This document shows, piece after piece, positions 11,369 through 13,637 of a DNA stretch of 34,574 bases (within the stretch, counting starts at the first letter, position 1; the number at the start of each line of letters is the position of its first letter). Source of the stretch: Candidatus Babelota bacterium. GTDB lineage: Bacteria > Babelota > Babeliae > Babelales > UASB340. Both the position numbers and the translations under genes were made by a program. The stretch spans positions 1 to 34,574 of the forward strand of contig JBHPBZ010000003.1 of the NCBI GenBank assembly GCA_042576165.1, in the 5' to 3' direction. The notes beneath the pieces were generated by a model. It was not told the DNA's origin and ran no database searches. It was given only the letters and a program-made list of their open reading frames with translations.

Positions 11369-12439
11369 TTACTCTTCTGCCAAAAATACTTCTTCTTCAT
11401 TCTTATCAAAACCACCTGGACTAGAAATTACATCTTGTAGTTGAATTTCAACCCCAGTCAATTTTGATGCCAATAATATATTTTGACCTTTTCTACCAAT
11501 AGCAATTGAACGCTGGTCTTCCGCCAACCAAACAACTGCCTTATTATCCGAAACCAACTCAACCTTATCAACCTCTGCAGGCTTTAAGCTAATTTTAACT
11601 AAATCCTCAGTAGAATCAACCCATTCAATTAAATCAATTTTTTCTTTTCCAAGCTCTCTCAAAATAGGTTTAATTCTAGAACCACCAACCCCAACACATG
11701 TTCCAACCGGATCAATTTCCTTGCTGGTTGAAATTACAATAACTTTTGTTTTATATCCAGCAATTCTTACAATTTTTTTAATTTCAACAATTCCTTCAAA
11801 AACCTCTGGAATTTCAATTTCTAAAAGACTCTTAACAAAGTCTGCAGATACTCTATCTAAAATAAGCTGATAATCACCTTTAGCAACAGCTAACACATCT
11901 TTCAATAAAGCTCTAATAGGATGGCCAATACGAATATTCTCTAGCGGAATGCAATTTTCACTAGATAAAATCGCCATAACATCACCAACCTTAACCACAA
12001 ATCCAATACGCTCTCTTTTGTGTACAATTCCACTTATAACTGTGCCTTTTTTTTCAATAAACTCTTTATAGACAGCATCTTGCTCTAAACTTCTAATTCT
12101 GCTTGCAATAAATTGCTTTGCAGCCAAAATCTCAATACGACCAACATCTTTTTGTTCAATAGGAACATTAATAGAATTGCCAATTTCAGCATTGGAATCG
12201 AAAGCCCGAGCTTTACGCAAAGATATTTCATCAAAGGGGCTTACAACATGAGAAACAATATTTTTTTCAGCATAAACTTCAACCTCTCCACTTTTTTTAT
12301 TATACAAAGCACTTAAAATTGAATCAGGAAACTTCTTCATAAACGCAGAAAGTACTCCCTCACAAACAACCTCTACAACCTTTTCTTTATCAAGGCCTCG
12401 TTCTTCAACTAGCCCTTCAATAACAGCGGAAAGTTTCAC
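11369..12439 (-). CDS. nusA: Transcription termination/antitermination factor NusA (short form)
   Basis: GRIEILAAKQ, S1 and KH domains, DPVGTCVGVGGSRI, AIGRKGQNILLASKLTG; upstream of infB. Confidence 0.96.
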   Translation of the reverse strand: MKLSAVIEGLVEERGLDKEKVVEVVCEGVLSAFMKKFPDSILSALYNKKSGEVEVYAEKNIVSHVVSPFDEISLRKARAFDSNAEIGNSINVPIEQKDVGRIEILAAKQFIASRIRSLEQDAVYKEFIEKKGTVISGIVHKRERIGFVVKVGDVMAILSSENCIPLENIRIGHPIRALLKDVLAVAKGDYQLILDRVSADFVKSLLEIEIPEVFEGIVEIKKIVRIAGYKTKVIVISTSKEIDPVGTCVGVGGSRIKPILRELGKEKIDLIEWVDSTEDLVKISLKPAEVDKVELVSDNKAVVWLAEDQRSIAIGRKGQNILLASKLTGVEIQLQDVISSPGGFDKNEEEVFLAEE

Positions 12440-12509
12440 TTTATATTTACCCTAATATTTATGTTTGAACAATTTAGCTAAGAATTAATCAACAGACAAA
12501 CAGAACTAA

Positions 12510-12538
12510 AGCTTACCTTAAGTATAGTTTAAGGTCAA
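12510..12538 (-). promoter_or_regulatory. Candidate sigma70 promoter for the nusA-infB operon
   Basis: On the minus strand TTGACC (12538-12533), 17-bp spacer, TAAGCT (12515-12510). Confidence 0.4.
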
Positions 12539-12724
12539 AACCAAAAAAGTGAAGTCTCCTTTGATTTTTTTCCTTTTTGGTTTATGTGGATTTTTTTAAA
12601 AAACTTCCACACCCATTATTAATTTATATATATATATAAATATATATAGTAATAGATGGGGCACTTTTTTGTTGATAACTCATTTTTTTCGGGTGAAAAC
12701 TGCCGTCTGGTAGAGCTATTCGTG

Positions 12725-12767
12725 TTCCGATAAATTGTTCATAACTTGTTCATAACTTGTTCATAAC
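12725..12767 (-). repeat. Left array: 3 x 11-bp TTGTTCATAAC plus terminal TTCCGATAAA
   Basis: Units at 12735-12745, 12746-12756 and 12757-12767; reverse complement of the right array. Confidence 0.97.
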
Positions 12768-12864
12768 TTTTTTTATTGTTCGATATTGCCGTCCCATAGC
12801 ACTTTACTACAGGGCCGCCGCTGTAACCCCCCTATTTAAGGAGGTATTCAAGGAGAGACAAAAA

Positions 12865-12918
12865 GTTATGAACAAGTTATGAACAGGTTATGAACAAGTT
12901 ATGAACAATTTATCGGAA
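12865..12918 (+). repeat. Right array: 4 x 11-bp GTTATGAACAR plus terminal TTTATCGGAA
   Basis: Units at 12865, 12876 (ends in G), 12887 and 12898; inverted relative to the left array. Confidence 0.97.
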
Positions 12919-12965
12919 TAGAAATGTTCCTGCGGATTTGTTTTTTGATTTATTCTAATTGTGAT

Positions 12966-13637
12966 TTATTTTGAGTTCTTTTTAAGATTTTTGAGGATTT
13001 TTTTCATATCTTCCCATACGTTTTTTTTTGCATTAGGATTTCTTAAAAGATAAGCTGGATGAAAGGTTGGAATTACTGTATAACCATTAAAATTAAAAGC
13101 CATTCCTCGTGCCTTTGTGATTTTTATGGATTTGCCTAATAAGGCTTGGGTTGCGCAAGAACCAAGGGTACATATTATTTTGGGTTTTATGATTTCAATT
13201 TCTTTAAATAGAATTAATTTTTTGCAAGTCTCGCTTTCTTGTGGAAGAGGAAGTCTGTTGTTTGGTGGGCGACATTTTACAACATTTGAAATATAAATAT
13301 CTTCTCTTTTTAATTCCATTGCTTCAATAATTTTTGTTAAAAGTTTTCCAGCTCTTCCGATAAATGGTATTCCTTGTATGTCTTCGTCCTTTCCTGGACC
13401 TTCTCCTATAAGCATTAGTTGTGCATTTGTATTTCCGTGTCCGAATACAATTTGAGTTCTGCCTTGTTGTGACAGGGGACATTCTTGGCAGTTTTTGTAT
13501 TTTGTATAAATTTTTTCTAATAGTTTTTTATTTTTCTCTTTGTTAACTTTTGTTTTTTCATCATCTTTATACAAAAATCCGGATGGTTGTTTTTTTAAAA
13601 AGTTTAAATAGTTTTTAATTTCTTTTATTTTTGTCAT
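12966..13637 (-). CDS. udg: Uracil-DNA glycosylase family 4 (Fe-S)
   Basis: CQECPL, IGEGPGKDED, PFIGRAG, NVVKCRPPNNR, TFHPAYLLR. Confidence 0.94.
   Translation of the reverse strand: MTKIKEIKNYLNFLKKQPSGFLYKDDEKTKVNKEKNKKLLEKIYTKYKNCQECPLSQQGRTQIVFGHGNTNAQLMLIGEGPGKDEDIQGIPFIGRAGKLLTKIIEAMELKREDIYISNVVKCRPPNNRLPLPQESETCKKLILFKEIEIIKPKIICTLGSCATQALLGKSIKITKARGMAFNFNGYTVIPTFHPAYLLRNPNAKKNVWEDMKKILKNLKKNSK

Follow-up and report, generated by a model that had tools for sequence, protein, structure and literature searches.

The segment at positions 12585–12679 of the DNA studied here is very likely the strand-opening end of a chromosomal replication origin (oriC). The DNA is a stretch of 34,574 nucleotides from Candidatus Babelota, referred to below as the window. 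On the right side of its AT-only core, the segment carries a module of the type of a basal unwinding system (BUS: DnaA box, GC-rich spacer, DnaA-trios, AT-rich element), and this is the only side anchored by a DnaA box. On the left side, it carries an arm that mirrors the trio tract with its GC patch and that is, as far as sequence comparison can tell, under selection. A first-pass annotation had proposed an origin unwinding site built from two opposed modules of this kind; the origin reading is upheld by a flip in strand composition, by a layout conserved in relatives and by the least stable duplex of the contig, while the left half of the proposal needs revision.

The predicted origin and its surroundings

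The segment lies in a 526-bp gap (12440–12965) between nusA and a gene encoding a family-4-type uracil-DNA glycosylase (udg). The features of this region are collected in Table 1, and all sequence strings quoted in the first-pass annotation were found where it had placed them. According to the list of open reading frames (ORFs), the gap contains none of 50 amino acids or more, and scans of the 34.6-kb window for tRNAs and Rfam families found none, indicating that the gap is not an RNA gene. From box0, the DnaA box nearest to the core, 55 bp lead to array A, and the GC-richer centre between the two box arrays measures 97 bp.

Table 1. Features of the nusA–udg region, with positions in the window
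Feature	Position	Strand	Remarks
nusA	11369–12439	−	Left flank; Pfam NusA_N, KH_5, KH_NusA_C; transcribed away from the origin
Conserved block AAAAAAGTGAAG	12543–12554		Between nusA and the unwinding element; near-intact in family-level relatives, recognisable further out
Small palindrome TGTGGA-T7/A6-TCCACA	12585–12611		Contains both left-hand 'boxes' of the first-pass annotation
TGTGGATTT	12585–12593		Left end of the small palindrome
ACTTCCACA	12603–12611		Minus strand reads TGTGGAAGT
TCCACA	12606–12611		Right end of the small palindrome
Left arm CCCATTATTAAT	12612–12623	−	Minus strand AAT TAA TAA TGGG: mirrored trios and GC patch
CCCATTATTA	12612–12621		Left flank quoted in the first-pass annotation
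Imperfect palindrome CCCATTATTAAT...TAGTAATAGATGGG	12612–12660		49 bp, with a 34-bp AT-only run at its centre
AT-only core of the DNA unwinding element	12615–12648		34 bp, rich in TA steps
DnaA-trio-like TAG TAA TAG	12647–12655	+	Three NAN trios, 14 bp from box0
TAATAGATGGG	12650–12660		Right flank quoted in the first-pass annotation
Spacer	12656–12669		14 bp: GC patch ATGGGGC (12656–12662), then a T-run
Box0, predicted proximal DnaA box TTGTTGATAAC	12669–12679	+	9-mer TGTTGATAA at 12670–12678; 12679 is the C of the 11-mer
Array A	12735–12767	+	Three TTGTTCATAAC boxes, 11-bp spacing, oriented like box0
Inter-array centre	12768–12864		GC-richer than its surroundings; about 95–120 bp in all relatives, sequence variable
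Array B	12865–12908	−	Four boxes (three TTGTTCATAAC, one CTGTTCATAAC), 11-bp spacing; inverted array in 25/25 relatives
udg	12966–13637	−	Right flank; Pfam UDG, 1.3e-35

Origin elements aside, nothing in the gap is better conserved among the relatives than the block AAAAAAGTGAAG, which may be part of the nusA promoter. A scan for sigma-70 promoters and terminators over 12400–13000 returned nothing useful: it did not call this block and did not clarify the nusA promoter, for which the candidate TTGACC-17-TAAGCT, read by hand, is a guess. Elsewhere in the window, a 765-aa ORF (22151–24448) matches both D-Ala-D-Ala ligase Pfam models, each in two stretches, and looks as though that enzyme had been duplicated in tandem or fused.

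Up to 13 kb the window has a negative GC skew, which turns positive beyond that point, and the cumulative minimum falls in the 12–13 kb bin. Since the sign flips while the flanking genes both lie on the minus strand, coding-strand bias does not explain the change. Two complete relatives show the same switch, with the polarity of an origin, at this locus. In G029 (1,228,744 bp), the skew is negative over 1–560 kb and positive over 596–1160 kb; its sole minus-to-plus flip falls at 595–596 kb, in the region upstream of nusA, with the nusA start at the flip. In G027 (1,525,295 bp), the minus-to-plus flip falls at 520 kb, just upstream of nusA, and the opposite flip between 1.19 and 1.28 Mb.

The DnaA of the window's genome is encoded on another contig (G000 contig C26; L001:976–2394, minus strand), and the protein DciA was present in all five relatives searched. 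In both of the complete relatives, dnaA and the origin are widely separated, at 47 kb versus 596 kb of 1.23 Mb in G029 and at 1178 kb versus 520 kb of 1.53 Mb in G027. The gene sits near the plus-to-minus flip, i.e., on the terminus side, and no skew flip occurs at dnaA itself.

To compare the locus among relatives, nusA neighbourhoods were fetched from 30 genomes. NusA was found in 26 of them, and the 25 loci in which the upstream region was present (L010–L034) were used; G023 was dropped, its gene being split over two contig ends. An origin lies upstream of nusA in 25/25, always with the same layout: an AT core with TTA-type repeats on the left and TAA/TAG on the right, then a GC patch and a T-run, then one box. 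The array plan is likewise shared by all 25, with usually four boxes in an 11–12 bp register, a centre, and four or five inverted boxes. Past the inverted boxes, most relatives have an open frame with the same reading direction as udg. The named public records that show the same double inverted array belong to Candidatus Babeliales or TM6.

Given this location, anatomy, conservation and skew, we predict that replication starts in the nusA–udg gap. The assembly of the window's genome comprises 779 kb and is 61% complete, so a second cluster of boxes may lie elsewhere. It is extremely improbable that the 11-bp repeats are instead operators of nusA, or the iterons of an element that is plasmid-like or integrated: iteron origins likewise have an AT-rich tract with phased repeats, both direct and inverted, next to it, but here no rep gene adjoins (the flanks being nusA and udg), 25 relatives keep the locus in synteny and have canonical DnaA boxes as its repeats, the whole-genome skew flips exactly at the locus in two complete relatives, and the window holds neither an RNA family nor a tRNA.

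For Chromulinavorax destructans (Dependentiae), a member of the same phylum, GC skew combined with TTATCCACA boxes has served to predict an origin; the region measures about 590 bp and is not at the point where the numbering begins (PMC6561590). The available part of that account gives the location only, and trios, a mirrored element, a double array and variant boxes do not appear in it.

Variant DnaA boxes and the recognition residue of DnaA

The boxes of the window depart from the canonical sequence. With up to one mismatch, the canonical TTATCCACA occurs 13 times in the window against 11.75 expected, which is the level of chance, so that origin finders based on canonical boxes would miss this origin. 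The boxes were recognised only through an 11-mer repeat and through the relatives. The 11-mer TTGTT[C/G]ATAAC, again with up to one mismatch, has 10 matches in the window against 1.63 expected, a number that none of 100 shuffles reached, and eight of the 10 are clustered at 12669–12908. Moreover, six of the seven exact copies in the whole assembly sit in the nusA–udg gap.

Box0 differs by one mismatch from the canonical TGTGGATAA and by one from the consensus of this genome, TGTTCATAA; the same position in the relatives holds TGTGGATAAC. This canonical TGTGGATAAC is also the box of most relatives, whose array A register consists of four canonical or variant boxes. The distance is constant as well, the first array box beginning 65–67 bp after box0, i.e., about six 11-bp steps, in all 26 loci (the window and L010–L034).

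Some further regularities were observed around the arrays. Their inverted symmetry runs into the outer flanks, TTCCGATAAATTG at 12718–12734 and CAATTTATCGGAA at 12909–12925, and a motif of the form ATC..AATAGA recurs among relatives immediately beyond array B. The inter-array centre of several relatives resembles decayed modules of the type 'GC patch, T-run, box'.

We examined whether the box type goes together with the protein that reads it. The recognition-helix motif of DnaA in the window's genome is R-N-H-S-T-V, with Asn at the position of E. coli Asp433. Gapless alignments place Asp at this position in the solved DnaA structures of E. coli, B. subtilis, A. aeolicus and M. tuberculosis, and Asp433 is among the residues that make base-specific contacts, as described in the accessible portions of two studies (PMC2533591, PMC7561715). 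The pairing of residue and box, examined order-wide, held in 36/36 genomes: Asn was found in all 10 with TGTTCATAA, TGTCGATAA or GGTGCATAA arrays, and Asp in all 26 with arrays of the TGTGGATAA, TGTTGATAA or GGTGGATAA type. In the first 26 genomes, four of four Asn-type DnaAs came with arrays of TGTTCATAA, TGTCGATAA or GGTGCATAA, and none of the 22 Asp-type DnaAs did. Ten further genomes were chosen by array type alone and their residue was predicted before DnaA was read; all ten predictions were right, and these genomes include contrasts inside one genus and inside one family. G026 was left out, as its origin is unassembled, its udg is cut by a contig end and the pattern search returned no array.

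It should be noted that the association rests on about five independent changes. On the DnaA tree the residue changes five times and the box class four times; independent pairs number four on the best tree and two on supported branches, all in the same direction and too few for a sign test. By this sequence evidence, the variant boxes are DnaA boxes whose type follows the recognition residue, and the boxes have drifted to TGTTCATAA with the DnaA recognition helix changing along. The chemistry would fit, in that the C-to-G change on the TTATCCACA strand swaps a hydrogen-bond donor for an acceptor and Asp-to-Asn does the reverse. The change from Asp to Asn together with that from TTATCCACA to TTATGAACA, TTATCGACA or TTATGCACC thus looks like a natural re-coding of DnaA specificity. 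If this code is true, domain IV of an Asn-type DnaA and its Asn-to-Asp mutant would show reciprocal preferences over TTATGAACA, TTATCGACA, TTATCAACA and TTATCCACA.

The unwinding core and its right-hand module

No 41-bp duplex of the 34.6-kb contig is less stable than the one that begins at 12615, with a nearest-neighbour dG of −33.0 against a mean of −47.3 (sd 3.8). The AT-only run within this stretch is only the third longest of the contig, and the genome has 37 such runs of at least 30 bp. The longest in the assembly, with 56 bp (26004–26059), stands at the beginning of an ORF without Pfam match (25998–27548).

The first-pass annotation had read the right flank of the core as a BUS-like module, and this holds in the window and in nearly all relatives under the published definition, which calls for a box with at most two mismatches, a spacer of 0–16 bp and at least three NAN trios (PMC8287927, as given in the accessible part of that paper). 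In the window, we found a box with one mismatch, a spacer of 14 bp and three trios, the last figure being the minimum of the definition. Among the relatives, 24/25 qualify (25/26 loci with the window) and carry 3–8 trios; L013 is the sole locus to fall short, on its trio run. Spacers of the 25 qualifying loci measure 9–16 bp, and 12–14 bp in 21 of them. The composition of the spacer, a GC patch followed by T5–6, recurs in relatives too.

The order of the elements also agrees with that of B. subtilis oriC, in which the BUS consists of DnaA-boxes 6/7, a GC spacer, the trios and an AT-rich element. A study of B. subtilis DnaD prints the strand complementary to the trios and names its box-distal end (PMC10201434, from the portion of the text at hand), from which the trio strand reads 5'-AT-rich, trios, GC, boxes-3'. 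The plus strand of the window has this same order of AT tract, TAG/TAA trios, GC patch and box, with the distance from box to trios and the number of trios within the limits given above. The right side most likely functions as a known BUS, as far as its sequence indicates.

The two origins differ in several respects. The proximal box is single here and a tandem pair in B. subtilis, and the box sequence here has changed to TGTTCATAA. Mirror trios are conserved on the far side of the AT core, and the origin does not lie beside dnaA. The loader here would be of the DciA type, found in relatives, whereas B. subtilis uses DnaD/DnaB/DnaI. The oriC of E. coli is similar in being separate from dnaA and in having its unwinding element at one end. 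Like the present locus, it has two groups of DnaA sites of opposed orientation. In contrast with E. coli, the arrays here consist of strong, identical boxes that keep strictly to an 11-bp register, the locus yielded no IHF site, and the unwinding element is a palindrome with trios.

We infer from these comparisons how initiation at this oriC would proceed, from DnaA binding through opening to helicase loading. DnaA-ATP would fill box0 and the two opposed, 11-bp-phased arrays. A DnaA filament would then grow from box0 over the GC/T spacer onto TAG TAA TAG of the plus strand, which it would stretch, opening the adjoining TA-rich core. A DciA-type loader would finally put DnaB on both strands.

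The mirrored left arm

The first-pass annotation had described the flanks of the core as an imperfect inverted repeat, and the relatives bear this out, the mirrored polarity of the trios being conserved over an order-level sample. Counted over the 26 loci, YTAYTA occurs 39 times in left halves and twice in right halves, whereas TARTAR occurs three times in left halves and 59 times in right halves. The arms were judged by these polarity counts and by comparing the pairing of a locus's own arms with that of arms from different loci; local alignment gave inconsistent arm boundaries. Arms of one locus pair better than arms across loci (13.2 versus 11.6, with 45 of 10,000 permutations as high), but cross-locus arms pair nearly as well, so most of the complementarity is generic. 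The outer, non-trio bases of the arms co-vary in about half of the loci (e.g., CTCAT/ATGAG, AGCTT/AAGCT and CCTCCC/GGGAGG). Conservation in relatives, which had been proposed as a check on both sides, thus extends to both sides for the mirrored trios and is confined to the right for the box. The left arm would place the same TAA-type motif on the opposite strand, at the bubble's far edge.

We then looked through 261 genomes of the order for cases in which a perfect TTATCCACA precedes a perfect TGTGGATAAC by 60–90 bp. Ten genomes matched, and nine of these are truly mirrored, i.e., a box, a spacer and an arm of the CTA/TTA type face a normal right module. The left spacers measure 12–14 nt in four (G067, G068, G128, G160) and 3–4 nt in five (G069, G070, G114, G141, G144). 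Both arrays still lie on one side only in these genomes, and none of the 11 genomes of the window's family is among them. The proposal of a symmetric, two-sided site thus describes a layout that occurs in nine of the 261 genomes, but in the window the left side does not qualify as a second BUS.

Beyond the order, we examined 80 box-array loci from many phyla. A one-sided BUS with at least four trios was found in 65 of them, and a strict two-sided BUS (box, spacer, mirrored trios, AT core, trios, spacer, box) in 10/80, a fraction that is no estimate of prevalence since the loci were picked for tandem canonical boxes. The ten (L071, L079, L103, L113, L136, L140, L144, L107, L088, L124) comprise five Poribacteria, two Clostridia, one Babeliales, one Chloroflexia and Moraxella oblonga. 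When the left module was read backwards as a control, 0/80 loci were two-sided.

As to the role of the left arm, we favour trios for the second strand over a same-strand site of the TTATT type or a hairpin partner, because boxes have repeatedly been gained next to this arm, correctly oriented and suitably spaced. Tentatively, the mirrored trios could be DnaA sites for both strands, each strand being held by one of the two opposed arrays, which the order conserves. Box0, together with array A, would take hold of the plus-strand trios directly, and array B would reach those of the minus strand by looping over the centre of about 95 bp; in the minority lineages, the mirrored box gained at the left arm would replace array B in this role. 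In B. subtilis, distal boxes that act through a loop offer a precedent (PMC6669920, as far as the available text goes), which makes the idea of opposed arrays each holding one strand testable.

The symmetry could also serve a hairpin or cruciform, in which melted or negatively supercoiled strands fold back and either stabilise the open state or present a structure to the loader, although we consider this rather doubtful. When the 95 nt preceding box0 are folded, the structure of minimum energy pairs both arms in most loci, with a z of −3.9 in the window and a median of about −2.4 as read off the 26 values, and the covariation of the outer bases and the better pairing of own arms point the same way. 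The hairpin of the 49-nt palindrome itself is weak in the window, however, with −6.9 and −6.2 kcal/mol (z −1.8 and −1.4; 14 and 18 of 200 shuffles fold as well), and the complementarity of the arms is largely of the generic kind noted above. Moreover, a hairpin fails to account for the repeated gain of a DnaA box at the left arm in the right orientation and spacing.

Another reading is that only the plus strand is bound, the left arm ATTATTAAT holding a TTATT so that one DnaA complex grips both ends of the bubble. In the unwinding element of E. coli, TTATT has been reported at the place that TAG takes in other origins (PMC10316083, in the part of the paper that is available), a likeness between that element and the present one. 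As TTATTA is the complement of TAATAA, plus-strand TTATT and minus-strand trios are the same sequence. We nevertheless hold plus-strand binding to be unlikely, since the mirrored boxes of the nine genomes face the minus-strand trios and are ill-suited to it.

Binding of both strands through trios, which we favour, might still involve a second BUS in this very genome, with the minus-strand TGTGGAAGT as a weak DnaA box from which a second filament forms on AAT TAA TAA. The first-pass annotation had taken the left side for such a module. Its mirrored trios, GC patch and conserved polarity stand; its box does not, as TGTGGAAGT has three mismatches to the canonical box and five to the array consensus TGTTCATAA of its own genome, beyond the limit of two, while the trios and the 4-nt spacer fit the definition. 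No box with up to two mismatches was found beside the left arm in any of the 25 relatives, nine of which belong to the same family. Four such boxes, in three loci, all lie at least 20 nt outside the arm, including a one-mismatch box about 26 nt away in L032. In addition, origins served by an Asn-type DnaA lack GG-type boxes in their arrays, so the TGTGGA core is probably a poor site for this DnaA. In the absence of a credible left box, the pair TGTGGAAGT/TGTGGATTT was not counted as a second BUS.

On the other side, TGTGGAAGT is correctly oriented, its 4-nt GC spacer matches that of the perfect left boxes in the five short-spacer genomes listed above, and strict two-sided loci do occur in several phyla with none in the control. 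As a three-mismatch match the site does not stand out clearly from chance; its TGTGGA core is rare in the genome (1.7e-4 per strand position), a point weighed only after it had been noticed. Rarity and geometry together leave room for a weak left box, and we regard a two-sided BUS in this genome, with both strands held in this way, as quite unlikely.

The inverted copy TGTGGATTT, which had been noted opposite TCCACA, forms with it a separate small palindrome and points the wrong way for a left BUS. As DNA, this palindrome folds at −6.4 kcal/mol (z −3.65), a value that none of 200 shuffles equalled, and its sequence is not conserved in relatives. Several of them have an unrelated, small GC-clamped hairpin at this position, e.g., GGGGTACCCC in L015 and GGGGTTTCCCC in L032.

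Mirror symmetry around an AT-rich unwinding element is familiar from archaeal origins, where inverted ORB elements are arranged in this way; the initiator there is Orc1/Cdc6, and the origins are not known to have a trio-type ssDNA motif. These origins resemble the two-sided model and the nine two-sided Babeliales origins, whereas the window has a box on one side only. In the accessible literature on DnaA-trios and on Dependentiae/Babeliales origins, we found no description of mirrored trios or a two-sided BUS; the supplementary BUS tables of PMC8287927 could list cases.

How a one-sided DnaA complex directs two helicases, one to each strand, has been posed as an open question (PMC10201434, in the text available). 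If the both-strand reading is true, the two-sided BUS would be a widespread and undescribed origin design that fixes the loading place of each helicase, seen in Babeliales, Poribacteria, Chloroflexia, Clostridia and Moraxella loci. An order-wide origin with trios mirrored on both strands, together with natural variants that have or lack the mirrored box, would offer a comparative and biochemical test bed for the loading of the two helicases.
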